Assembly (NCBI GenBank): GCA_963843575.1
Contig: CAWJKZ010000014.1
Span: 704,001 to 768,000, forward strand
Length of the DNA: 64,000 bases
Direction: 5' to 3'
From: an uncultured Acidobacteriota bacterium
Lineage (GTDB): Bacteria; Acidobacteriota; UBA6911
Under the pieces are notes generated by a model. It was not told the origin of the DNA. It saw nothing but the letters and a program-made list of their open reading frames with translations, and did no database searches. Positions 45,940 to 60,728 of this stretch are shown piece after piece. The translations under genes and the position numbers were made by a program. How positions within the stretch are numbered: position 1 is the stretch's first letter; each line of letters begins with the position of its first letter.

Positions 45940-48057
45940 TCAACGCGCGCAGCGGAATCCGTGCAATTCGGTGCAATACGTTGGAGCGCCCGGCAACCGG
46001 ACGGCCGAGCGTAACACGGTTGGATGACCGTGAATGAAGCCGCCGCGCGCAACACGGTCTCCCGAGGCTTCGGGGTCCTCACGCCCATCATCACTGCGGT
46101 ACGGATAGTCCGAGGAGAGGCTGGAGGTCCACTCGCCGGCGTTGCCGAGCATGTCGTACAGGCCCCACGGATTTCTGCGGCGCTCATCGCCGACCGGCAG
46201 GGTATTGTGGCTGTTATTGGCAAAGACATCCGCGAAGGTATCGCCCCACCAAAATTCCGACTGGGTGCCGGCACGGCAGGCGTACTCCCACTCGGCCTCA
46301 GTCGGGAGCCTTTTGCCTGCCCACTGCGCATAGGCCCGGGATGCATGCCAGCTCACGCAGAGCACCGGGTGATCGGCTTTACCTGGCGGATAATCAAAAC
46401 CGTTCCACAGTTTGAGGTATTCCTCGTCTACAAGGCGCTGCCCGGCCCTCCCCTTCTGCCACTGCGGGTTGGCATACACGAATCGCTGATAGTCCGCGTT
46501 GGTGACTTCGTTCACATCCATCCAGAAGCCCCGCTCCACCCTCACCGTGTGCTTCAGTTCCGAGAAACCGTTGGATCTGAGGACAGACAGAGTGCCCATC
46601 TGGAAGCTTCCTGGAGGTATCCAGACCATTTCGCGGCCGTCGCCCGGGCTGGTCCAGCGATCACCAGGCCGGGGATCCGGGTCCTCGCCTTTTAGACGCT
46701 GGATAGCCGGGAGATCCTTGGCGGCAACATAACCGCCGTGCCAGGCCCACACGAAATAAGCCCCGGCAACCATCAGGACCACGGCCGCCAGTCCGAGGGC
46801 CAGGCGAACCAACCACGGAACAATTCGCGAGGAAACCGATCGCCGGTTCCATGCTGCGGCTTTTTTCTCAGGCTTGTCCGTTCGTTCCTGCGCTGCTATG
46901 TCCGTCTCGACTCCTCGCGTGGACTGCGGGAGCCGGTCGTCGGCGCTGCCGACCGGCGAAACCGGCGTTCCCCGATCCGGCGGTTTGCCGACCCTAGGTG
47001 CGGACTCCGCGCTCTTCCGTTCTTCAGTTGGCGGGCGCGGTTCCTTCGCCGCATGACTCCGCTCCCTTGCAGGACTGAGCTCGGCGGCCTCCGCCTGTAT
47101 GCGGAGCAGGGCCTCCTGCCGCTCGCGCTCCGCCGTGCCATCCAATTCCCGGCAGAGCTCCGCGACTGTCGGAAACCGATCTGCAGCCTGCTTTTCGAGG
47201 CAGCGCAGCACGAGGGCGTTCATGGCCGGCGATACCCCCTCGATGGGTTTCGGCGCTTTCCCACGGATCTGGGCCGTGATATCGCCCGTGTAAAACGGCG
47301 GGTCGCCGGTGACGAGCTCGTAGAGGACGACACCCAGCGAATACAGGTCGCTCTGGGGGGACGTCTCCCCCATGACCTGTTCCGGAGACATGTAAAGGAG
47401 GGTGCCAGAGTCGAGTGCGCCGGTCAGGCGCGATACCGAGTCACGGCAGGCGCGCGCGATGCCGAAGTCCGCGATTTTCACCGAACCATCCTTACCGAGC
47501 ATCACGTTCCCCGGCTTGAGATCGCGGTGGACTATGCCCTTCGAATGGGCATGTTCGAGGCCCCGGCAAATTTCAACCGCGATTCTCCTCGCTTCGCCTT
47601 CCGGGAACCTGTCCGACGCCGCCAGCAACTGGGCCAGGCTTTCCCCATCCACGAATTCCATGGTGAGGAACTTTAAGTCCCCGTCCTCCTCGAAGTTGTG
47701 CACGCGGACGATGTTCGGGTGTGTAAGAGCCATCGAATGCCTGGCCTCGGACTTGAGTCGCGCAACCGAACCCGCGTCGCGGCTGAGGATGTCGCGCATA
47801 ACCTTGATGGCAACCGGCAACCGGAGGGCCTCATCTTCGGCCTGGTAGACCCGGCCCATGCCCCCGATTCCAATCTGCCTCTGAATGCGATAGCGTTTCA
47901 GCAGGATCGTCCCCGCCGCAAGGCCGAATTCCGTCGCAGCGGCCCCGATCGGATCGCTCACCGGTTTGCGGTTTGAGGTCGGCGCGAGGTCTCGTCCGCA
48001 GGCGGAGCAGAACAGCCCATCATCTGGATTCACGGTACGGCAGTAGCTGCAGTGCAT
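45940..48057 (-). CDS. Ser/Thr protein kinase with N-terminal zinc ribbon, TM helix and C-terminal FGE-sulfatase (SUMF1) domain
   Basis: CSYC..CSAC; GIGGMG.VY, VAIK, HRDLKPGN, DFG, YMSPE; RLPTEAEWEYACRAG, GLYDMLGN, GFRCAR. Confidence 0.93.
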   Translation of the reverse strand: MHCSYCRTVNPDDGLFCSACGRDLAPTSNRKPVSDPIGAAATEFGLAAGTILLKRYRIQRQIGIGGMGRVYQAEDEALRLPVAIKVMRDILSRDAGSVARLKSEARHSMALTHPNIVRVHNFEEDGDLKFLTMEFVDGESLAQLLAASDRFPEGEARRIAVEICRGLEHAHSKGIVHRDLKPGNVMLGKDGSVKIADFGIARACRDSVSRLTGALDSGTLLYMSPEQVMGETSPQSDLYSLGVVLYELVTGDPPFYTGDITAQIRGKAPKPIEGVSPAMNALVLRCLEKQAADRFPTVAELCRELDGTAERERQEALLRIQAEAAELSPARERSHAAKEPRPPTEERKSAESAPRVGKPPDRGTPVSPVGSADDRLPQSTRGVETDIAAQERTDKPEKKAAAWNRRSVSSRIVPWLVRLALGLAAVVLMVAGAYFVWAWHGGYVAAKDLPAIQRLKGEDPDPRPGDRWTSPGDGREMVWIPPGSFQMGTLSVLRSNGFSELKHTVRVERGFWMDVNEVTNADYQRFVYANPQWQKGRAGQRLVDEEYLKLWNGFDYPPGKADHPVLCVSWHASRAYAQWAGKRLPTEAEWEYACRAGTQSEFWWGDTFADVFANNSHNTLPVGDERRRNPWGLYDMLGNAGEWTSSLSSDYPYRSDDGREDPEASGDRVARGGFIHGHPTVLRSAVRLPGAPTYCTELHGFRCAR

Positions 48058-49188
48058 AGAAGTGTCCCGCCTTCCGGCGGCAGGAATTCAGTCGACTTGG
48101 AAGTGCCGCATCGGGCATCGCACCACGAGGAGCACGCCCGCCGCAATCGGGCGCGTGCCCGTTTCGAGCCGGGGACCGGAACGATGCTCCATGCAGCAAC
48201 GCGATTCTCAGGGAGAATCGCTCGTGTCGATCGGTACGCCGGGCAACCCATGGAAACGTTCAGTTTGAGATGTCAGCCAGTCTATTCGGAAACTTGCAGG
48301 GTGTCCAGCCATTTGGCCGGTGTGAGCAACCCGTCTGCTGCGCAACTCCTCCTCCATGGCCACGTTGCGCTCGCAGGACTATGGCAACGGCTTGGTAGCA
48401 TGGAGATGAGCCAAAGTCACATCAACTCCGCACCAAAAAACCTTCGAATCCAAAAAGAAACGCATTCCCTCCTCTCTGCAGGCAACAAAGGGTGTGTCCC
48501 GGGAAACCGCGAACGTTGTGGAATTCAGCGGCATGATATCGTCGGACTCAACCAGTTTCAGCAGCCTTGCGTGGTTTTTCCACACGCAATCCAGATTGCG
48601 GAGCATGTTTTTGATGTAGTGCTGGACGTTCAGCCAGACACCGACGTAAGCGTGGCCCCGCATCAGAAATCATATCGGACACAGTCCCATTCGCTCGACG
48701 CTGGCTGCGCAGAGCAGGGTCAAATCAAGGCATGTGCCTCGGCGATGCTCGAAAGTCTTTTCCGCAAAAAAACCTTCTGTGAAACGGTGCGAAATGAATT
48801 CCACAGGGTTTCAGGAGTCTCAAAGCTGGGGGGGGGGATTGATGTAAGTGATTTTCAAATCCTGCTGCAACGTATTATAGAGAGCTTCCATCATCTCGAA
48901 GGCTTTTTTCCGGGTTGCCGCGCTGATACCCGCTGAGGTCGGTTTGTTTGTTCTCGCGGCGCGAGCGGTCCCGAACCATGTTGATGATTTTTTCGACCGC
49001 TTCGTTGTTGGGCCGGACGAAACAGGCCATGACATCCGCCATGTGCGGGTGGTAATATCATTCATTATAGGCAAGAACCTGCATCGGATAAGTGTCGGAG
49101 AAATACAACTCTTCATCTGCAACCACGTCGATCCGCAAACAGCCTTCTTCCGCTTCCTGCACTTGCCGCAAGCGCGATCGAATGAATC

Positions 49189-51648
49189 CAGACCTCCTGA
49201 CATAGCCCCCTGGAACCCACATTTCCATTGGTGATTCCTCAAGGGGGGCGGGGACCCAAACCTGTCCTCTTTTTTCGACTCTGATACCCCGGTTCTACCT
49301 GCGATGCTCCTGTCATGGCGGGAGCACAAAGGCAACAGAGTCTGTTCGTTCAACCGGTCAAGGATGCCGGCTCCATTGTCGTCAATGACCGTTGCACGGT
49401 TCGCACGGATCTGGGCAACCGAGTCGTTGTCGTCTCCGGTATCGTCCTGGCCCAGTACGATATTGCCGACCGTATGGCGGAGTCCTACGCGATGGTCAGT
49501 CTCGTGGAACAGGGCTGGGCAAGCCAGCGGGAAGTAGCACGAGCGTTCCGGTGTTCCGTACGCACGGTTCGTCGGCATCAACTTCGATTCGCCGCAGGCG
49601 GCTTGACTGCGCTCGGCCACCGGGACGGGTATCCTGCGGGACTCCCCCGATTGACGCGCTCGCGCGTACAGATGGTCCATCGACTCAAGGATGAGGGTCT
49701 GGCGAACCGTGAGGTGGCCCGTCGGCTCGGCGTCACTCCGAAAGCGGTCAGGAAACTCTTGAAGCGGTCGGGTTGGCACGACCACGAACCCGAACAGGTC
49801 CGCTTGCCGCTGGCGCCGTCGGGTGGGGACCCAAACCTGTCCCCTTTTCAATCCAAGCAGGCGGTTACGGCATCCGTAAGACCCTCGCCGGGCGGGGACC
49901 CAAGCGTGTCCACTTTTGTCGCTGATGCCGCAGAACCGGTTCCGATATCGTTCGATGCGGATCCTTCCGATCGGCGCGTGGATCGCATCCTTGCCTGTCT
50001 GGGACTCCTGGACGATGCGGCACCGCTGTTCTGTGCCGAAGCCCGTGTGCCCCATGCCGGCGTGCTGCTGGCGGTGCCGGCCCTGGTGGCGAGCGGCGTC
50101 TTTGCGATTGCCCGGAGCGTCTATGGCAGCATCGGCCCGGCCTTCTACGGTCTTCGCACGACTCTCATGGCTTTGGTGTTGATGGCGCTGCTGAGGATCA
50201 AGCGCCCCGAGGCACTCAAAGAGCATGCGCCGGATGATCTGGGACGCGTTCTTGGCCTCGATCGTGCTCCCGAGGTCAAGACGATGCGGCGCAAGCTCGA
50301 CCGGCTGGCTGCATCCGGTCGGGCCGCCGACTTCGGAAGAGCTCTGGCGCAAAAGCGCGTCGCAGAGCGAGGAGCCGCCATGGGATTCCTTTATGTGGAT
50401 GGACACGTGCGGGTCTATCACGGCAAGCGGACCCTGCCCAAGGCTCACGTCGCGCGGATGCGTCTGTCGATGCCGGCCACGACCGACTACTGGGTCAATG
50501 ATGCGGTCGGCGACCCGCTTTTTGTCGTCACTGCGGAAGCCAATGCCGGACTGACAAAGATGTTGCCTGTCCTGCTCCAGGAGGTGCGCTCGCTCGTGGG
50601 TGAGCGGCGGGTTACCGTGGCGTTTGACCGCGGCGGGTACAGCCCGAAGCTTTTTCTGGAGCTCATCGCTGACGGGTTCGACATTCTCACGTATCGAAAG
50701 GGGCGCATCCGGCGTATAGCCCGAGCGCACTTCAGTCGACACGAGGCGGTCATCCATGGTCGCAAGGTGGCTTACACATTGGCGGATCAGGGGGTTCGCT
50801 TGCTGAAAGGCAAGCTCCGGCTGCGCCAGGTGACGCGTCTCGTTGAGGATGGACACCAGACCCCCATTCTGACTTCCCGCCGGGACATCCCGGCCATCGA
50901 GGTCGCCTTCCGGATGTTTGAGCGGTGGACGCAGGAGAACTTCTTCAAATATCTCCGCGAGGAGTACGCGCTGGATGCCTTGGCGGACTACGGCGCTGTT
51001 GCCGCGGACCCGGCGCGGGAGGTGCCCAACCCCAAAAGAGCCGAGATGACGGCGCAACTCGAGGCGGTGCGCGCCGAGTTTAATCGCCTCACCGCAGAAT
51101 ACGGAGCCGAGGCCTTCATCAACCCTGAACAGTCCCGACCGACGATGCGAGGATTCAAGATTGCGCAATCCAACCTCGCAAATCGTATCCGGAAGGCATT
51201 CGACTGCATCTCGAACCTCGAAGTGGCGCGATCGGCTCTGCCCAAGCGGGTTCCCGTCGCCAGTGTCGTCGCGGACGAGGTGGTCCAGCTTGCACCGGAA
51301 CATAAACTGCTCACGAACATCATCAAGATGGTCGCTTACCAGGCCGAGAGTGATCTCGTGCATCTCGTGGCGCCTCACTACAAGCGGGCGGCCGACGAAG
51401 GCCGTACGTTGATCCAGTCTGCCCTCGCGTGTACCGGGAATCTCCGGGTCACGACGGAAGAACTCCACGTCACGTTGGCTCCCCTCAGCTCGCCGCATCG
51501 CTCCAAGGCAATTGCAGCACTCTGCGAGGAACTGAACCTCAGCGCGGCCACGTTCCCTGGATCCCGCCTCCGTCTCCGCTACGCGGTGGAACTCGGTCGG
51601 CCGTGCCATAAGAGGACAATTCAATAGGCGCCTATGTCAGGAGGTCTG
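49189..51648 (+). mobile_element. Insertion sequence, 2460 bp
   Basis: 17-bp perfect TIRs CAGACCTCCTGACATAG / CTATGTCAGGAGGTCTG; GAATC direct repeat at 49184-88 and 51649-53. Confidence 0.9.
49315..51627 (+). CDS. Putative DDE-type transposase with N-terminal HTH domains (770 aa)
   Basis: Two HTH-like segments (REVARAF, REVARRLGV); YVDGHVRVYHG, FDRGG, RW.QENFFKY; fills the TIR-bounded element. Confidence 0.85.
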   Translation: MAGAQRQQSLFVQPVKDAGSIVVNDRCTVRTDLGNRVVVVSGIVLAQYDIADRMAESYAMVSLVEQGWASQREVARAFRCSVRTVRRHQLRFAAGGLTALGHRDGYPAGLPRLTRSRVQMVHRLKDEGLANREVARRLGVTPKAVRKLLKRSGWHDHEPEQVRLPLAPSGGDPNLSPFQSKQAVTASVRPSPGGDPSVSTFVADAAEPVPISFDADPSDRRVDRILACLGLLDDAAPLFCAEARVPHAGVLLAVPALVASGVFAIARSVYGSIGPAFYGLRTTLMALVLMALLRIKRPEALKEHAPDDLGRVLGLDRAPEVKTMRRKLDRLAASGRAADFGRALAQKRVAERGAAMGFLYVDGHVRVYHGKRTLPKAHVARMRLSMPATTDYWVNDAVGDPLFVVTAEANAGLTKMLPVLLQEVRSLVGERRVTVAFDRGGYSPKLFLELIADGFDILTYRKGRIRRIARAHFSRHEAVIHGRKVAYTLADQGVRLLKGKLRLRQVTRLVEDGHQTPILTSRRDIPAIEVAFRMFERWTQENFFKYLREEYALDALADYGAVAADPAREVPNPKRAEMTAQLEAVRAEFNRLTAEYGAEAFINPEQSRPTMRGFKIAQSNLANRIRKAFDCISNLEVARSALPKRVPVASVVADEVVQLAPEHKLLTNIIKMVAYQAESDLVHLVAPHYKRAADEGRTLIQSALACTGNLRVTTEELHVTLAPLSSPHRSKAIAALCEELNLSAATFPGSRLRLRYAVELGRPCHKRTIQ

Positions 51649-52449
51649 GAATCAGGGGGAGGCAGAGGCTTTTCTCCACGTGTTTTTTGCCGGGGAGGAT
51701 GTCAGGGATCGTCTTCTGAAATGGTTCACTGTAGTCTGGAGCCACCCAGGCTTTTACCAGGATATTCTGAAGGACCTCCTTTGAATTGTTGTTGAGCTGC
51801 AGCGAAGTGATGAGGGGCTGTCCCGAGTGCACCAGCGAATAGTTGAGGCGAGGTATGCCTTTGACTTTGAGCTTCAGGTCCCGAATTGCGATTCGCTGGA
51901 AAAGGGGCGCTCCGGCCTGTTGCATCAGCAGGTCAAGCCTGTAACCCGTGTTCTTGATTGGCAGGCGGGGATCGATTTCGGCGTGGCTGAGAAGATCGGG
52001 TAGTTCGTCTTCGTCTTCCTCGGCCAGCTCGTCAATTTCTGCGTCGGACAGGTCGGATGGCAGTGACGTTGTCCGATGGGAGGGACTGGCGCCTCTGCGG
52101 TCGAGGATGCCTGAAATCTCGTCGACGGAGCGCGACACATCGCTTCTGATCTGGTCCAGCATGCTTTGATTCCGGCTGCGAAGTGCTTCAAGAGACGATT
52201 GCAGTGCCGATCGGGGGCCGGAGGAGGCTCCTGTGCCGGTGCGCGCTTGCGCGCAGGCTCTGCATGTGGCGCTGAAGGAGCCACACCGGGAGCCGTTCTT
52301 GGTATGTCATGGCGCGCAGCCAGAACGACTCCCAGGGCACCCGATTTCGGCGGATGCTGGACAACCAGTGGCATTGTCGAATAGACTCAGGCCGCCCTAC
52401 AGCATCTCAATTCTGCGGACGAAGTGCCGCACCGAACTGGAGATCAGCC

Positions 52450-54507
52450 ATGAAAACTGTGCTCCAGGAACACTCCTTGGACTGGGCGCTGACCCACGTA
52501 TCCCGATTCTGCGACAACGACTTTTTCCCGGCTATGTTCGAATTCAATGTCTTTGCTGGGGATTGGAATGAAGTCAGGATGCATATCCTCGCCATTGACC
52601 TGCAGGCGCACCTTCCAAGACCGCCGCTGGTTCGCTTCGCTCCGAAGCTGGCGGGATCCTTCCGGATACTCCATCGCCTCGACCCCATCGATTCGCTGAT
52701 CTATACCGCCCTTGTGCACGAGATCAACGAGACGTTGGAAAAATCCCGAGGCATGGGATCCACGGCATCCATTCACCCCTTCCGCATCGAGCCCTCCGCC
52801 AACGGGTCATTCTTCGGCGGCCGAAATTCGTGGCAGCAACACACCGAAAAACTTGAAAACCTGGCGAAGCAGTACCGCTGCTGCGGGCCTCAGAACACCG
52901 GCGGGTTCGTATTCATGGCGGATATCCACGACTTCTTCGGCAACATCCAGCCACGCCGGCTGATCCAGATGCTGCTCGAATCGGGCGCCGTGGGCGCGGA
53001 GCGAGCCCAAGCGCTCGGGCGCTTCCTTCCCGCGGTCTGCACCGGGGCCGGGCGTGGCATCCCCGCCGGCCCGGGGGCCAGCAGGGTCCTTGCCGAGTTG
53101 CTCTTCGCAGGCATCGATCAGAAGATCCTCCAGTACACGACCGACTTCACGCGGTGGGGCGACGACCTGCGGATGTTCTTCCGGACGCGAGAGGCGGCGG
53201 AAACGGCGCTACGCGATGTGACCACGCATCTGCATGCGATCCATGAATTGAGATTCGCCCCGCTGAAGACGCGCATTGTGCCGGTGGATGAATTCCTGGC
53301 GCACCACTTCAAGAGCCGGCCCGACGAATCCGCGGATGCCGGGGCCGCGGAGGTCCGGTTGAGCCAGCTCGTCGGGCAGAGCCCCCATGCCCTGCATTAC
53401 CATTGGATGTCCTCGGATGCAGCTGCACCCCCGTCGCAGGAAACAGGCGTTTACGCCACCCTGCAATCGCTACCTGAGCACGCGGAGGTTGGGACGGCGT
53501 ACGTCGTTCACTTCAACCGCGCGGTCGAAGGCAGCCCGCCGGATCTCCTCGCCGCACGGCGCATCCTGCGCAAAGCCGCGGCATACCGAGTCCGCACCCT
53601 CCTCCCGGGCGTGCTGGCGCATTTCGACAAGCTTGCCCCCGTGATTCGAGAAACGGCGATCTACCTGAAATCGGTTCTGGACACGGAGAACGTCCGGACC
53701 CACGCCAAGGAAATCCGCGAGATGTGGGAGGGGAGGCTCCACTCCTCCTCGTTCATCAACGAGTGGATGGGGCACGTGTTGACCCACCCTGCTTTCAACG
53801 AAATCGATTTGCCTGCGCATTACAGCGAGCTCGTGGATGTCAGGAGCAAGGCCCTGATTGCACTGCGGAAGAATGATGTGGATTGGGTCAGGAGGCACGC
53901 GGCTCAGCTGGACACCTTCGATCTGTGGGACAGGCGGGCGGTCCTCTATGCCTGCTCCGTGCTGCCCGAAGGCGAACGGGCGGACGTCGCGAGAATGGCC
54001 CTGGCCCGAGGGGGCATCACCGAGCGGGCCGTGGCGCGGCACATCGAGCCCGGGTCCGTCGCCGCAGCCGCGTCGGCCAGACTGAGGGGCCGGATCGGGG
54101 CCCCGGACAACTATCCTTCCTATGGCGACAAGGCGTTCAGGAGTCCGGACAGTGATCTATCCCGCGGCTACCGCGTCGAAGCCCCGGACAACTACCCCGC
54201 GTATGGCACCAAGGCCGTGGCCCCGAGCCCGCACTGGCTGAGCGAGCGCATCCCGGAACTGGATGCGCTGCTGAGGGAGCATGGTCCCGAAATCACCGTA
54301 GGCATCCAGGACTCGATCGATTCCGGCAACTGCATGTCGGGAACCGAATCGTTCCGTCGCGACCTTCTGGCACGCCTGGAGTTGAAGCCGGACACCGCTG
54401 CCGTTCCGGCCAGCGCGCTGCTGGCGCACCGCGACGACCCGTTGACCCGTAGGGCGGCCCGGGCCGCGGCCCTGCGCTGGAAGGAACTGCAAGGCAAGAA
54501 ACCGTGA
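52450..54507 (+). CDS. Reverse transcriptase, UG/Abi (DRT-like) type, with helical region and C-terminal extension
   Basis: GGAG RBS; PK..GSFR..HRLDPID, MADIHDFFGNI, GIPAGPGASRVLAE, RWGDD, LRFAPLKTRI. Confidence 0.88.
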   Translation: MKTVLQEHSLDWALTHVSRFCDNDFFPAMFEFNVFAGDWNEVRMHILAIDLQAHLPRPPLVRFAPKLAGSFRILHRLDPIDSLIYTALVHEINETLEKSRGMGSTASIHPFRIEPSANGSFFGGRNSWQQHTEKLENLAKQYRCCGPQNTGGFVFMADIHDFFGNIQPRRLIQMLLESGAVGAERAQALGRFLPAVCTGAGRGIPAGPGASRVLAELLFAGIDQKILQYTTDFTRWGDDLRMFFRTREAAETALRDVTTHLHAIHELRFAPLKTRIVPVDEFLAHHFKSRPDESADAGAAEVRLSQLVGQSPHALHYHWMSSDAAAPPSQETGVYATLQSLPEHAEVGTAYVVHFNRAVEGSPPDLLAARRILRKAAAYRVRTLLPGVLAHFDKLAPVIRETAIYLKSVLDTENVRTHAKEIREMWEGRLHSSSFINEWMGHVLTHPAFNEIDLPAHYSELVDVRSKALIALRKNDVDWVRRHAAQLDTFDLWDRRAVLYACSVLPEGERADVARMALARGGITERAVARHIEPGSVAAAASARLRGRIGAPDNYPSYGDKAFRSPDSDLSRGYRVEAPDNYPAYGTKAVAPSPHWLSERIPELDALLREHGPEITVGIQDSIDSGNCMSGTESFRRDLLARLELKPDTAAVPASALLAHRDDPLTRRAARAAALRWKELQGKKP

Positions 54508-55223
54508 ATCGACCTCTCGGCATGCATCTGGAGGAGGTCGCCGTGCTCATGGGCGGCTTCCTGCGCGGCTTTGAAGACAGCCGTGTGCACCTGGGCACGG
54601 CGGCACGTTTCGCCGGGGAATTCGGCAGGTTGATGCGGATACCGGCGCTTCACCCTTCGGCGGGGGACAAGGCCGTATCGTATGCCGAAGCAGCCGGATC
54701 TTACCGGGTTCCCGAACATGCCGTTTTCGACGCGAGAGCGGCCGATCCAGTTTCCGTCCTGATCAGGGGTCTCACCGGGTCGCCGGCGCTGGAGTCGGCA
54801 CACCCGCTTGGGGTCCTGCATCCGGAGAGCCTGCGCGCGGATCTCGGCCGGCTGTTGCGCATCCCGCTCTTGCGCTTCTACCTCCAAGTTGCGAAACGGG
54901 AGGCGTTTTGCACGCTGTTGAAGGGGATCGCCCAGCACGGCGGCTTCCCCGTCTCGGGCACTCTGCGGGGATTGCCCGACGCTTGCCCGGCCTGTGGGCA
55001 TCGGCTGGCCTTTGATGCCGGCGGCGCCCCCCAGTGTCCTGCCTGCAGCCAGACACTCGAGACCTTTCTCACGCTCCCGATGGTACCCGGCGTCCGGGCG
55101 CTGGTCTCATACGAGATGCTGCGCCAGGTGCTCGAACTCAATCTCGTGGAAACGTACCAGGAGGAGAGTGAAATCCGGCCCCTCCGGCCCGAGAGCCAAG
55201 CCCCGCATGACCACAACCGATGA
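54504..55223 (+). CDS. Hypothetical protein with CPAC-x13-CPAC zinc ribbon
   Basis: GTGA overlap with the RT stop; 3' end overlaps the next gene's start. Confidence 0.7.
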   Translation: MNRPLGMHLEEVAVLMGGFLRGFEDSRVHLGTAARFAGEFGRLMRIPALHPSAGDKAVSYAEAAGSYRVPEHAVFDARAADPVSVLIRGLTGSPALESAHPLGVLHPESLRADLGRLLRIPLLRFYLQVAKREAFCTLLKGIAQHGGFPVSGTLRGLPDACPACGHRLAFDAGGAPQCPACSQTLETFLTLPMVPGVRALVSYEMLRQVLELNLVETYQEESEIRPLRPESQAPHDHNR

Positions 55224-57063
55224 GAAGATACACCCTTTTCTGACAAGGTCGCTCGCCGACAGGCGCACTCTGCTGATCGCCGAGCATGTGCAGGCTGCTC
55301 TCCATTTCGAGTTTGCCGACGAACACATCGAGGAACGCGAGTACGACGAACAGGAACGGCTGCGAGTCCACCGCACGATCGATCGCAAGGTCTTCCGGGG
55401 CGACACCTACGCCCGCTACTCGCGCATCGTTTCCGGGCTTCGCAAGCAGGGTTTTGCCGGGGAAAACCTCGACGCGAAGGTCAGGGCGCATCTGGCCAGG
55501 GACCTCGGATCCGTTGCTTCCGCCGTGAACGTCCGGGATGACGTCGAGGGATCGTTGCGGCGGTACGCCGACATGTTGCCGCAACACAAGTGGCCGGTAG
55601 TCCTGTGCATAGCTCGGGCACTCGAAGAGGCCGGCCGCCTCAAGGAACGCCTGGCTTCGCTCGGATTCCCGGTCCTTTCCGAAGGATTACTGGAGAGACT
55701 CGGAATCGTCTGCTGCGGCTGCCCTCCCGAACAGAGCTTTGTCCGCCACGTCGCCAGCCTTCCCAACACCGGCGCGGTCGCCGACGCGTTGACCCCCGTG
55801 AAGGCGCCGGAACCGATGTCGGTGAGCACCACGATGGTGGAAACCCGGCTAATCCTCGGCATCACCCCGGACATGGCTGAGAAATACGGCCATGATGTCA
55901 CGCTCGCTGTCTTGGACACGGGCCTCGATCGCAACCATCCGGCCTTCGCCGCAATGTCGCACGAAGATTACGCGAACTTCACAGCAGAAGAAGATACGGA
56001 CGTTCAAGGTCATGGCACGCACGTCGCGGCCATTGCCGCCGGCAACGACCGAACGTGCGACGGCCGATATTCAGGGATCGCCCCCCGGAGTCACCTGGTC
56101 GCGGCGAAAGTCATGTCGAGGAGGCAGGACGGAACCCTCGAGTCCGTCCTTCGCGGGATGGCCTGGGCCGTCTTCGAAAAGCGCGCAGACATCCTCAGCC
56201 TGTCGCTCGGCGACTGCGGGACGCCGCCCAACGGGATGTCCATCTGGACACGGGCTTGCGAAGAGTCCTTTCGCCAGGGAACCGTGGTTTGCGTGGCAGC
56301 AGGCAATCCGTGTCCTCCCTACCCGCAATCCATCACCGTGCCGGGCGATTCCGTCCACGCCGTCACGGTTGGAGCAATCGACCGGAAACGTCAACTGGCC
56401 GGCTTTTCCGCTCTGGGGAGCACCGATCCAAACTCGCCGCTATTCGGAAAGCCCAACTGCGTCGGCCCCGGGGTGGATATCGTGGCGGCCCGCTCTGCTT
56501 CGGCAACCTACGGGCCCGCGGAAATCGTGGACCAGCTGCACGTTCGGCTCTCGGGTACAAGCATGGCGACGCCGGCCGTTGCCGGATGCCTGGCGCTGCT
56601 GAAGTCCAAGGCACGTTCTCACGGCTGGGACATCAGCCCGGCGGAGCTGGCGGATCTGTTTTACGCGGCATGCCTGCCGCTGAGAAATGCAGCCGGGCGG
56701 GAATACCGCAGCGACATCGAGGCGGGCCATGGGTTGGTGGATATGCGCGCGGCGTTCCGCGAAGCAGAGCGGCAGGCCTCGTCGCGCGCTTCCCAGGGTA
56801 TAGACAGCGCCGCGAGAGTGGAACAGGTGGGTGGACATCCGGAGCCCCTCCCCGCGGCAGTTGCAGGTAGTGCTTCGATCCAACCGGCGCAGTTCGAGCC
56901 CGGCGTCTGCCATCGCTGCGGCCAACACTACCTCGGCAGAATCGGGACCTTCTCGCCGGTGTGGGTGTGCGCGCATTGCGCTGCACCGCTTTGCGTCGTC
57001 TGCTGGCAGCTTGGCTGCCGCGAATGCGCAAAGCACAAAGCCGGCGGGGCGCAAGCCCAGTGA
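55207..57063 (+). CDS. S8 family serine peptidase (subtilase), no signal peptide, Cys-rich C-terminal zinc finger
   Basis: Catalytic triad motifs AVLDTG, HGTHVA, SGTSMATP; oxyanion AAGN. Confidence 0.92.
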   Translation: MTTTDEKIHPFLTRSLADRRTLLIAEHVQAALHFEFADEHIEEREYDEQERLRVHRTIDRKVFRGDTYARYSRIVSGLRKQGFAGENLDAKVRAHLARDLGSVASAVNVRDDVEGSLRRYADMLPQHKWPVVLCIARALEEAGRLKERLASLGFPVLSEGLLERLGIVCCGCPPEQSFVRHVASLPNTGAVADALTPVKAPEPMSVSTTMVETRLILGITPDMAEKYGHDVTLAVLDTGLDRNHPAFAAMSHEDYANFTAEEDTDVQGHGTHVAAIAAGNDRTCDGRYSGIAPRSHLVAAKVMSRRQDGTLESVLRGMAWAVFEKRADILSLSLGDCGTPPNGMSIWTRACEESFRQGTVVCVAAGNPCPPYPQSITVPGDSVHAVTVGAIDRKRQLAGFSALGSTDPNSPLFGKPNCVGPGVDIVAARSASATYGPAEIVDQLHVRLSGTSMATPAVAGCLALLKSKARSHGWDISPAELADLFYAACLPLRNAAGREYRSDIEAGHGLVDMRAAFREAERQASSRASQGIDSAARVEQVGGHPEPLPAAVAGSASIQPAQFEPGVCHRCGQHYLGRIGTFSPVWVCAHCAAPLCVVCWQLGCRECAKHKAGGAQAQ

Positions 57064-59765: not shown

Positions 59766-59843
<78 letters not shown>

Positions 59844-59868: not shown

Positions 59869-60637
59869 CTAATTCTTGCGACCGATCAACCCAATTCCAG
59901 GCAGTCGAACAGGATGCGACAGGTTTGTCTCTTCGCCCATCAGCCACTGGGCGGCATCGTAGTCCGTCTGGTCGCGCTGAAGGGGGGTGATCGAAATGTA
60001 GTGCTCGAGGATGGCATGGAAGTCGAGCGGCATCCCCCCGAGGTCCGGCTTCCCCGCCCCGGGGTCCTCCCCTGCCCCGTTAAAGCCGGGGTAGTGCGGT
60101 GCGCATCCCTGCCGCGTGATCTTCACCCCGCGCACCTTGCGGACCGGTACGTTGACGTTGAGGCAGACACCGAGCCGCACATCCCGATCGAGCAGCGAAC
60201 GCACCAGGGTGCGGGCAAACCTGGCCGCGTCCTTGAACTGCACGGGCTTGTCGTCGTACGCCTGCGAGATGGCGACGGCGGGAAGACCGTTCTTGGAGGC
60301 CTCCCGCGCGGCGGCCACGGTGCCCGAATACATTATGTCGTCTCCGAGATTCGCACCCGCGATTGATGCCGGAAATGACCAGGTCGGGGCGTTGGGGCGC
60401 GATGTGTCTCAGGGCGTATATCACGCAGTCCGCAGGTGTTCCGTCCAGGCTGAAGCGGTTCGGCGAGAGCTTGGTGACGGTGAGCGGGGCATGGATGGTG
60501 AGGCCGTGGCTGACGGCGCTGCGCTCGCGGTCGGGCGCCACGACGAGGATATCCGCAATGCCTTGGAGGGATACCTCCAAGGCGACCAGCCCTGCGGCTT
60601 CTATACCGTCGTCGTTGGTAAGTAGAATGAGTGCCAC
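59869..60637 (-). CDS. surE: 5'/3'-nucleotidase SurE (frameshifted)
   Basis: [27 protein letters not shown]. Confidence 0.93.
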
Positions 60638-60651
60638 GAGAAAAAGAAAAA

Positions 60652-60728
60652 TGGTCGGGACGAGTGGATTTGAACCACCGACCACACGCACCCCAAGCGT
60701 GTGCGCTACCAGGCTGCGCTACGTCCCG
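60652..60728 (-). tRNA. tRNA-Pro(GGG)
   Basis: CGGGACG acceptor stem, anticodon arm CACGC-TTGGGGT-GCGTG, GGTTCAAATCC, CCA end. Confidence 0.97.

Follow-up and report, generated by a model that had tools for sequence, protein, structure and literature searches.

What does an antiviral-type reverse transcriptase (RT) do at the head of an operon whose other products are a zinc-ribbon protein and an intracellular protease? The question is raised by three same-strand genes in the window, the 64,000-nucleotide stretch of Acidobacteriota DNA analysed here. An earlier note on this DNA had reported overlapping gene ends, and the ORF listing and translations bear this out, with no internal stops. Both junctions can be read directly in the DNA: a GTGA at 54504–54507 joins the RT gene to the Zn-ribbon gene, and a 17-nt overlap at 55207–55223 joins the latter to the gene for an S8 subtilase. 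The earlier note knew of no described system pairing these three proteins, and indeed no model in PADLOC, Pfam or NCBIfam spans the trio. Judging from alignments of 14, 10 and 18 sequences for the RT, the Zn-ribbon protein and the S8 protease, respectively, catalytic and metal-binding residues are all retained. That the RT shares a tight operon with a Zn-ribbon protein and a subtilase whose usual home is a large, membrane-associated ATPase gene cluster suggests a protease-coupled DRT8 variant, and we tentatively favour the reading that the three genes are one working unit, a variant of this kind of the DRT8 (UG7) antiviral RT. All that we say of function at this locus is inferred.

The operon begins with a DRT8-family reverse transcriptase

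The first gene (52450..54507, + strand) encodes a 685-aa protein with an RT domain, a family-typical C-terminal region and a clade-specific tail. Its frame is open from 52309, and the ATG at 52450, which has a GGAG 7 nt upstream, aligns with the starts of relatives. The earlier placement among defence-type UG/Abi RTs could be narrowed to UG7/DRT8: the best model is PADLOC Drt8 (291 bits, E 5.3e-87), matched almost end to end (profile positions 2–482 of 493), and the runner-up PADLOC model is RT_UG21 (103 bits, E 5e-30). The Drt8 alignment reaches residue 525, spanning the post-RT region, where the alpha-helical repeat domain of class 1 enzymes would be expected. The active-site aspartates, D158 and D238/D239 of RWGDD, do not vary among the 14 clade members aligned. 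Pfam gave no match to the RT at E ≤ 0.1, and no conserved ncRNA-like element was found upstream of the gene.

The antiphage activity of UG7/DRT8 has been validated by experiment; the family is enriched in defence islands and protects Escherichia coli against T5 in a manner requiring the RT active site (Mestre 2022, PMC9226505). In the parts of that paper used here, variant 1, the tested system, has a PD-(D/E)XK nuclease effector, variant 2 has no partner, 165 UG7 members have no associated gene, and proteases are mentioned for UG9 only, not for UG7. The table of a 2026 review, as far as it is used here, lists DRT8 among the DRT families without an established mechanism. In place of the variant 1 nuclease the window has the Zn-ribbon protein and the S8 protease; no nuclease family matched the two downstream genes or their neighbours. 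The close relatives of the window RT are partnerless, as variant 2 is described to be. A UG9 variant likewise combines a class 1 UG/Abi RT with a serine protease, but that protease is described as trypsin-like, in an N-terminal fusion to the RT, with an MBL-fold hydrolase partner and PolA (PMC9226505), whereas the window has a different RT group and a separate subtilase with a Zn-ribbon partner.

The Zn-ribbon protein and the subtilase may form a protease–prodomain-like pair

The middle gene (54504..55223, + strand) has a GTG start and encodes 239 aa, or 233 aa if read from the ATG at 54522 (P0019). Four cysteines in a CxxC...CxxC arrangement (C161, C164, C178 and C181), invariant in 10 sequences, agree with its earlier description as a zinc-ribbon protein. 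Nine relatives at 40–54% identity and 43 representatives make up its family, whose member P0054 matches the family profile with its own residues 3–135. In the predicted model (pLDDT 79) the ribbon is inserted into a ferredoxin-like alpha/beta domain. No Foldseek match to this model reached E ≤ 0.001, the match to subtilase prodomains having a probability of 0.89 and E 0.24. In VIA-align, subtilase prodomains (PCSK9, fungal alkaline protease and subtilisin) were the best folds at Z 6.3 to 4.5, with PCSK9 prodomains in the top rows (81 residues aligned at Z 6.3 and rmsd 3.0); behind them came NusG/Spt5 NGN, ACT and acylphosphatase folds at Z 6.0 to 4.5. The modelled protein thus possibly resembles a subtilase prodomain, the likeness being weak, by itself not significant, and at the level of a generic ferredoxin-like fold. 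Unlike the bound inhibitory prodomains of PCSK9, pro-subtilisin and the Csp proteases, it is a separate gene product and has a Zn ribbon inserted.

The third gene (55207..57063, + strand) encodes a 618-aa intracellular S8 subtilase (PF00082, E 2.2e-42) made up of an N-terminal region, a catalytic domain and a Cys-rich Zn finger. Across 18 sequences the triad and oxyanion residues (D237, H269, N367 and S452) and the seven cysteines of the C-terminal finger never vary. The triad is complete and the N-terminus shows nothing like a signal peptide, in keeping with the cytoplasmic subtilase that had been proposed. Its predicted model has a pLDDT of 86, and language-model features liken its N-terminal part to the CspB prodomain and Inhibitor_I9 (score 0.94). 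The ~270-aa C-terminal domain of its family is missing, making this a derived short form; the short forms P0003 and P0029 constitute one clade nested among long forms. Against NCBIfam IteS_antiphage the protein scored 29.4 bits, which does not reach the family threshold (cutoff 900), and the best PADLOC IetS match (E 7.6e-12) covers part of the profile only. IetAS, in which the AAA ATPase IetA accompanies the S8 peptidase IetS, is nonetheless an instance of an intracellular S8 protease in a conflict-type context, as here. The two differ in that IetAS has neither an RT nor a Zn-ribbon partner and the window S8 gene has no adjacent ATPase, none being present at 52–57 kb of the window.

Relatives of the pair reside in a cluster of ATPases, coiled-coil and SPFH proteins

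In related genomes the Zn-ribbon gene is the next gene upstream of S8 in four of four relatives with a readable flank. The pair has no RT beside it there; it comes straight after an AAA ATPase gene and is embedded in a cluster that encodes Vps4/CdvC-like AAA ATPases, small coiled-coil proteins and SPFH proteins. The AAA + S8 logic of IetAS recurs in this arrangement. The cluster ATPases (AAA E 1e-35, Vps4_C E 1.6e-4) are closer to CdvC/Cdc48 than to IetA, with scores far under the family cutoffs: their best NCBIfam model is CdvC (E 2e-63 and 2e-52, below cutoff), the ATPase ahead of the pair scored 114 bits against IteA (cutoff 510), and the profile matches to IetA were weak (E 3e-31 to 3e-33). 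The SPFH/Band_7 proteins carry Zn ribbons. For the coiled-coil proteins Pfam gave only Snf7, at E 0.71, and PDB gave no sequence match. Different genera of the family share the cluster, with conserved synteny, and the window's own genome retains a full copy on contig C24, where the S8 C-terminal domain is a separate gene. One cluster gene resembles the N-terminal part of ProA of the antiphage system Prometheus (E 6e-75, below cutoff), and the cluster may therefore be a conflict system in its own right. The Zn-ribbon/S8 module would switch partners, from AAA ATPases in the large cluster to an RT in the window.

A repeated tyrosine-containing motif marks the RT tail

Relative to DRT8, the window RT adds a clade-specific tail composed of PDNYPSYGxK repeats and a ~95-aa domain. 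Two PDNYP(S/A)YG(D/T)K repeats were identified by alignment at 54103..54213 (+ strand; residues 552–561 and 579–588), and their DNA pattern matches G000:C14:758103 and 758184, which are window positions 54103 and 54184; the motif occurs nowhere else in the window's genome. Of 16 RT-clade proteins, 12 have DNYP[SA]YG; the 173 other fetched proteins all lack it. A search of 51 genomes with the motif DNA pattern gave seven matches in four genomes, against no control matches. All fall in RT tails except two, both in genome G063, where the motif is located at the C-terminal tail of a paralogue of the cluster coiled-coil protein. The domain that follows (54217..54504, + strand; PELDxLL...DSxDSGNC...DDPLTRRAARAAA) is conserved in P0001 and P0004–P0009 and duplicated in P0005; it has no paralogue in the genome or the fetched loci, and no atlas match. 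Fetched RT relatives of ~35% identity align only to about residue 530, short of the tail, and the RT relatives of G417 and P0016, both of which co-occur with S8, are without it.

Each tail repeat offers two tyrosines. AbiK carries out tyrosine-primed DNA synthesis, and tyrosines are stated to prime DNA synthesis in DRT9 (2026 review). The repeats may be analogous to the priming sites of these protein-primed class 1/UG-type RTs. We know of no repeated Tyr motifs described for the C-terminal tail of either AbiK or DRT9.

RT and protease module co-occur, but are seldom neighbours

As far as adjacency goes, the expected linkage of close RT homologues to the other two genes failed to appear. Of four intact close relatives with context (G412, G416, G417 and the metagenome locus L004; flanks of 0.7 to 8.7 kb), none has a Zn-ribbon or S8 gene nearby; since all four stand alone, among housekeeping-like genes, strict adjacency of RT and module is not conserved. 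Neither gene was found at any of 63 RT-related loci from metagenome and genome scans. RT and module lie on different contigs in G412, G416 and G417, and the RT loci differ between these three genomes, indicating that the RT is mobile. The candidate new defence operon of the earlier note therefore stands as to the identity of its RT class, Zn ribbon and S8 protease, and falls as to the adjacency of RT homologues to these neighbours.

At the level of whole genomes the two do co-occur. The N-domain+S8 module is present in 6 of 51 genomes of the order (G000, G063, G412, G414, G416 and G417); five of these six have the RT clade, G414 only in the form of a remnant, and it was found in none of the 45 others. 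G063 has the module and no RT. In a phylum sample of 401 genomes the module occurs in two and the RT clade in G000 only. This co-occurrence represents few independent lineages, namely genus g234 (four genomes) and the window's genus, and kin share genes. The RT remnant of G414 directly precedes the cluster, in the same orientation and ~6 kb from S8. The closest RT, P0004 (73%), and the closest S8 protease, P0029 (70%, a short form), are each recorded on a 17,043-bp contig, and P0016 (RT) and P0037 (S8) each on a 40,480-bp contig; on these equal bp figures alone, RT and S8 seem to share a contig in two metagenome cases. Among the matches listed, no Zn-ribbon homologue is on a 17,043-bp contig. 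Co-occurrence, the G414 remnant, the apparently shared contigs and the tail motif tie the RT clade to the protease module circumstantially, and the functional link between RT and S8 is likewise circumstantial, limited to one bacterial family and a narrow lineage.

The operon lies in a decaying, variable region

The surrounding island had been described as full of remnants, which is partly right: the IS element upstream is intact, it interrupts a frameshifted pseudogene, and the SurE gene downstream of the operon is split over two frames. The IS element (49180..51656, + strand; Transposase_29 family) encodes a 770-aa transposase at 49315–51627 (PF21804, E 7e-88), and two copies at 93% identity are present in the same-genus genome G401. 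The IS cuts a paralogue of a cluster gene for a 484-aa Zn-ribbon protein. The 5' part of this pseudogene (51632..52162, − strand) lies next to the RT gene and is oriented divergently from it, and its 3' parts (48382..49186, − strand) are fragmentary ORFs in two frames. In tblastn against L077:2038-3492, window 51913–51653 corresponds to residues 129–215 (49%), 49186–48905 to residues 215–308 (54%) and 48930–48382 to residues 300–475 (43%). Further along, at 45940..48057 (− strand), is a Ser/Thr kinase with a Zn ribbon and a fused FGE-sulfatase domain (Pkinase 2e-51, FGE-sulfatase 5e-50). It is homologous to the kinase found at the end of the cluster in relatives, being 55% identical over 337 aa to L077:178-1965, and the window's genome has four other kinase paralogues at 57–67%, making five similar paralogues in all. 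Together with this kinase, the pseudogene speaks for a link between the RT and the module. A tRNA-Pro(CGG) gene (59767..59843, − strand; ARAGORN and Rfam) forms the right border of a variable region that is missing from G401, whose DNA similarity and synteny resume only at ~59753, beside the tRNA. No classical defence genes were found flanking the RT in the window.

Because this neighbourhood is decaying, with an IS and a pseudogene, the adjacency of RT and pair could be a by-product of deletion. A stand-alone DRT8-type RT would then have landed fortuitously beside the debris of a second, decaying cluster copy, and the truncated S8 protease and the Zn-ribbon protein would be independent of it, possibly still serving the C24 cluster or being lost. 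The solitary state of all four intact close relatives, the UG7 members reported without an associated gene (PMC9226505), the mobility of the RT, the presence of an IS and of a split, frameshifted paralogue, the loss of the S8 C-terminal domain, and the full cluster on C24 with that domain as its own gene all favour this account. We nevertheless regard it as rather unlikely: the 4-nt stop/start overlap between RT and Zn-ribbon genes looks more like an operon under selection than like the raw scar of a deletion, a second organism has a short S8 form with its catalytic residues kept, apparently on one contig with the closest RT, the RT clade is found in module-bearing genomes only in both the order set and the phylum sample, and a coiled-coil protein of the cluster type shares the RT tail motif.

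A proposed protease-coupled DRT8 variant

If the three genes are one unit, an RT already travelling with the cluster may have come to sit directly upstream of the Zn-ribbon/S8 pair, probably through deletions in the second, decaying cluster copy, and the subtilase would have shed the C-terminal domain borne in the cluster form. The Zn-ribbon protein would keep the cytoplasmic subtilase latent in the fashion of a subtilase prodomain, while the RT, like other DRTs, would detect infection or synthesise DNA. The PDNYPSYGxK tail, presumably disordered, could be the docking or cleavage site by which RT and protease influence each other. Cleavage might release or activate the RT, or else free the protease to cleave cellular targets and so abort the infection. 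Such a natural variant, with the nuclease partner apparently swapped for a latent intracellular protease and a Tyr-rich motif repeated in the RT tail, would open a direct route to the control or the killing action of this RT family.

A bolder version of this model, which we consider improbable, treats PDNYPSYGxK as a short linear motif connecting a DRT8-type RT to a bacterial Vps4-like/coiled-coil/subtilase machine. The subtilase, gated by the prodomain-like Zn-ribbon protein acting in trans, would cut at or beside the Tyr-rich repeats, and either the RT would be unleashed or tyrosine-linked (protein-primed) DNA–peptide products would be freed as toxic or signalling species. If true, this would be a protease-gated RT and the first functional tie of an antiviral RT to an ESCRT-like membrane system in bacteria.

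ESCRT-III proteins have MIT-interacting motifs in their C-terminal tails, and the G063 coiled-coil paralogue carries its motif at the same place. The RT clade might then have no part in defence and instead assist a machine for membrane remodelling or envelope stress, built from Vps4/CdvC-like ATPases, candidate ESCRT-III-like coiled-coils, SPFH proteins and a processing subtilase. The tail would recruit the RT to this machine much as tail motifs bring ESCRT-III clients to MIT domains, and the window would show a reduced remnant of the arrangement. The CdvC and Vps4_C matches, the Zn-ribbon SPFH/Band_7 proteins, the conserved synteny of the cluster and the lack of flanking classical defence genes in the window fit this view, but we judge it very unlikely, given that UG7/DRT8 is reported as validated against phage and enriched in defence islands (PMC9226505), that the RT is mobile and patchy while the cluster is not, that the locus lies in a tRNA-adjacent region missing from a same-genus genome, that a cluster gene resembles ProA of Prometheus, and that the ESCRT-III nature of the coiled-coils is only a candidate one (Snf7 E 0.7, no PDB sequence match).

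Whichever role the RT plays, the analysis also reveals a conserved bacterial cluster that combines Vps4/CdvC-like ATPases with SPFH and coiled-coil proteins. The RT, Zn-ribbon and S8 families are small, each having some 15 to 40 known members, and are restricted to a single family of Acidobacteriota-like soil bacteria.

Architecture of the RT–Zn-ribbon–S8 operon

Three intact ORFs lie on the (+) strand between 52450 and 57063, in agreement with the earlier note, which had described three overlapping same-strand genes free of evident frameshifts. They encode a reverse transcriptase (RT; P0001, 52450–54507), a Zn-ribbon protein (P0002, 54504–55223) and an S8 subtilase (P0003, 55207–57063). The RT stop codon (TGA, 54505–54507) overlaps the GTG start of the Zn-ribbon gene (54504–54506), whose own stop codon (TGA, 55221–55223) falls 17 nt past the ATG of the S8 gene at 55207. 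The RT start codon, ATG at 52450, has a GGAG 7 nt upstream and aligns in register with the starts of all RT relatives. Promoter and terminator scans gave matches at chance level, and we found no conserved RNA 5′ of the RT gene, as the five upstream regions have in common only a ribosome binding site and the start codon; Rfam models identified two tRNAs in the window and nothing else. Public reads matched in two soil-metagenome runs, at 0.07 of sampled words and with no RNA run among them, and in these two runs, where pieces are short and mostly 151 bases, no read piece spans the operon's gene junctions.

The note had called the RT DRT-like, and this designation held up. P0001 matched the PADLOC Drt8 model with an E value of 5.3e-87 over profile positions 2–482 of 493, far ahead of every other group, the next-best UG/Abi model being RT_UG21 (5e-30). 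Besides P0001 the small RT clade has 15 proteins, 13 at 50–73% identity, and its alignment showed D158 and the RWGDD motif to be invariant. A search with this alignment recovered no RT relative among viral contigs.

The subtilase is, as had been proposed, apparently cytoplasmic: P0003 matched Peptidase_S8 (E 2e-42) and its N-terminus is not signal-peptide-like. D237, H269, N367 and S452 are invariant in an alignment of the S8 family, and a Cys-rich Zn finger lies at the C-terminal side of P0003. The protein matched the PADLOC ‘subtilase’ model PDLC03014 (E 2e-28) and fell far below the IetS/IteS thresholds of PADLOC and NCBIfam. About 25 full-length relatives share 40–70% identity in this family, where an additional domain of about 270 aa at the C-terminus brings the usual size to 840–907 aa; P0003 and P0029, the relative closest to it, are without this domain. 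In our tree the two short forms make up a single well-supported clade (SH-aLRT 99) that branches from within the long forms, so a single loss of the C-terminal domain gave rise to the short form.

The Zn-ribbon identity of the middle gene was likewise confirmed by an invariant CxxC…CxxC in the aligned family of P0002, a protein with no match among Pfam, PADLOC or NCBIfam models. The family is small and conserved, with 9 relatives in one search and 43 representatives in another; a search with its alignment found no relative among viral contigs. The structure model of P0002 (pLDDT 79) shows a ferredoxin-like domain into which the ribbon is inserted; subtilase prodomains (PCSK9, Z 6.3) head its fold matches, without a clear gap to other ferredoxin-like folds. 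A conserved YQEE..IRPL segment lies in the C-terminal part of the protein. We ruled out that the Zn-ribbon protein is the missing S8 C-terminal domain, as the long S8 forms carry a different domain, and that the ribbon is fused to S8 in the long forms, as a separate Zn-ribbon gene adjoins the long S8 genes. One 866-aa member of the S8 family, P0054, matches the Zn-ribbon family profile within its N-terminal 135 residues (E 3e-9), and could be a natural Zn-ribbon/S8 fusion or a gene-call artefact.

The Zn-ribbon/S8 pair has its usual home in an AAA-ATPase cluster

In five genomes of the same taxonomic family (G063, G412, G414, G416 and G417), S8 belongs to a conserved cluster whose genes share one strand. 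Its order runs CsgG-like protein, small coiled-coil protein, AAA ATPase, Zn ribbon and S8, followed by two more such small coiled-coil proteins, another AAA ATPase, two SPFH/Band_7 proteins, which bear Zn ribbons, a 484-aa Zn-ribbon protein and a Zn-ribbon kinase. The Zn-ribbon gene is directly upstream of S8 in all four relatives with a readable flank, with a 4-nt overlap in two. The best match of the cluster ATPases is CdvC/Vps4, below cutoff, and a Pfam Snf7 match at E 0.7 is the sole ESCRT-III hint from the coiled-coil proteins. At one of these loci (G416:C29:4171-6727) matches to the Zn-ribbon gene and to the 5′ part of S8 are spread over more than one frame, suggesting that this pair carries frameshifts or assembly errors.

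The Zn-ribbon/S8 pair occurs in the cluster of some genomes and not of all. The window's own genome has a cluster copy on another contig, at G000:C24:202400-216800 (locus L089 covers 203000–215000; relatives are loci L076–L080), where the S8 family is represented by its C-terminal domain alone, encoded by a 231-aa gene of its own; two other genomes likewise match this domain alone.

The RT clade co-occurs with the protease module without conserved adjacency

The expectation that close RT homologues would be linked to the other two genes was not borne out by adjacency. Relatives of P0002 or P0003 were found in none of the 63 RT-related loci fetched from metagenome and genome scans, and when this was repeated over all 127 fetched loci, again no locus of an RT relative held one. 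Once loci duplicating the same RT genes were counted a single time, four intact close RT relatives had readable context (in G412, G416, G417 and the metagenome locus L004), and all four stand alone amid housekeeping-like genes, in a different neighbourhood each time.

Co-distribution gave a second view of the linkage. The protease module (N-domain plus S8) is present in 6 of all 51 genomes of the order, and the RT clade in five of these six and in 0/45 others, where only generic RT matches were found (E about 1e-11). In a 401-genome sample of the phylum, the module occurs in two genomes and the RT clade in the window's genome only. Since four of the five RT–module co-occurrences fall in one genus, they represent few independent events. 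In G414, a co-oriented remnant of this RT precedes the cluster at a distance of about 6 kb from S8. It retains the final ~100 residues of the family-typical part and one degenerate repeat; deletion of the genes between this remnant and the pair would yield exactly the RT–Zn–S8 order of the window. The closest RT, P0004 (73%), and the closest S8, P0029 (70%, also short), are each recorded on one 17,043-bp contig, and a second RT and S8 relative (P0016 and P0037) each on one 40,480-bp contig; judged from these equal sizes, each pair seems to share a contig. None of the Zn-ribbon homologues listed is on a contig of 17,043 bp. The case for a functional link between RT and module is circumstantial.

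A repeat motif is common to RT tails and a paralogue of a cluster protein

Downstream of the family-typical region, 12 of the 16 RT-clade proteins carry one to eight copies of a PDNYPSYGxK repeat, a motif found in 0/173 other fetched proteins. At the DNA level the motif pattern gave seven matches in 4 of 51 genomes of the order (reversed control, 0), all in RT tails bar two in G063, a genome with the module and no RT of the clade. These two lie in a contig-edge ORF (G063:C79:1-760, (−) strand) as PDNYPSYGNK repeats in a C-terminal extension; the ORF is an extra paralogue of the cluster's 206-aa coiled-coil protein (70% over 194 aa). What lifts the locus above the ordinary is that a Vps4-like cluster and an antiviral RT have a motif in common. 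For the C-terminal domain of the RT tail, neither the genome nor the fetched loci gave a paralogue, and the atlas gave no match. Complex prediction of S8 with RT tail residues 530–685 scored 0.00 twice, in runs without controls, and weighs neither way. Cyanobactin/RiPP-like processing of the repeats was set aside, the PatA/PatG match being generic S8 likeness (38 bits vs a cutoff of 421).

Genomic setting and interpretation

Diverging from the RT gene is a pseudogenized paralogue of the cluster's 484-aa Zn-ribbon protein (48382–49186 and 51632–52162, (−) strand; match to L077:2038-3492), frameshifted and split at residue 215 by a Transposase_29-family insertion sequence (49180–51656, (+) strand). 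Over its C-terminal 330 aa, the intact counterpart in L077 aligns with the first 317 positions of the NCBIfam model for the Prometheus ‘anti-phage protein ProA’ (E 6e-75), with a score far short of the cutoff set for that family. Further upstream, a fusion of Zn-ribbon Ser/Thr kinase and FGE-sulfatase (45940–48057, (−) strand) is homologous to the cluster kinase; it matches PADLOC PD-T4-6 kinase models (E 5e-80), which may be generic because the genome has at least five such kinase paralogues. G401, a genome of the same genus, lacks the RT–Zn–S8 locus and has in common with the window only the insertion sequence (two copies, 93%) and the DNA right of about 59753, which begins beside a tRNA-Pro. 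The operon therefore sits next to a tRNA gene in a variable, partly decaying region. The housekeeping gene surE (59869–60691, (−) strand) is broken into two overlapping frames (1–98 and 105–183 of Pfam SurE), either by a real frameshift or by an assembly indel error, and the latter would affect trust in the other ‘frameshifts’ of this MAG.

From the observed anatomy, conservation and co-distribution we infer, tentatively and at somewhat under even odds, that RT–Zn–S8 is a working, derived unit of a DRT8-type RT, a latent intracellular subtilase as its partner and a prodomain-like Zn-ribbon protein that would regulate the subtilase. The source of the Zn-ribbon/S8 pair may be the AAA-ATPase cluster, which would by then have been a companion of the RT clade, and the Tyr-rich repeats of the RT tail could be a contact or cleavage site. 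Two points reduce the weight of this reading: close RT relatives do not keep the gene order, and the Zn-ribbon/S8 pair usually resides elsewhere. The main rival is less probable: the genes would have come together by chance amid the debris of a second copy of the cluster, and the RT would work by itself, which is how its relatives seem to behave. The stop/start overlap of the RT and Zn-ribbon genes and the co-distribution of RT clade and module speak against this rival. That the RT is an accessory of a membrane-remodelling machine, and not of defence, we consider improbable, the Vps4-like cluster and the strong Drt8 match bearing on it from opposite sides. As ESCRT components are held not to be identifiable in bacteria, according to the abstract of a 2024 ESCRT survey, the AAA/SPFH/coiled-coil cluster merits a study of its own.

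Relationship to known DRT8 systems

DRT8 corresponds to UG7, which, in the available portion of Mestre et al. 2022 (PMC9226505), occurs with a PD-(D/E)XK nuclease in 150/385 cases and partnerless in 165/385, and shields E. coli from T5 in a manner requiring both RT and nuclease active sites; among UG groups, that portion names proteases for UG9 only. A 2026 review table gives the DRT8 mechanism as not established. The window RT differs from known DRT8 in having a protease module in place of the nuclease and a tail motif not previously described, and it is in these two respects that the unit is new. The accessible parts of the literature on DRT8, UG7/Abi RTs and ESCRT-III/Vps4 hold no pairing of a UG7 RT with a subtilase, which weakly supports its absence from print; the gene-neighbour supplementary tables of Mestre 2022 (PMC9226505) may list UG7–subtilase neighbours. 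The RT, Zn-ribbon and S8 families are all tiny and confined to one family of Acidobacteriota-like bacteria. At another fetched locus (L053:7825-12041), a distant (35%) stand-alone UG7-like RT is followed by 759-aa and 646-aa proteins whose N-termini resemble, by eye, ATPase and helicase P-loops, and which may be another defence pair.
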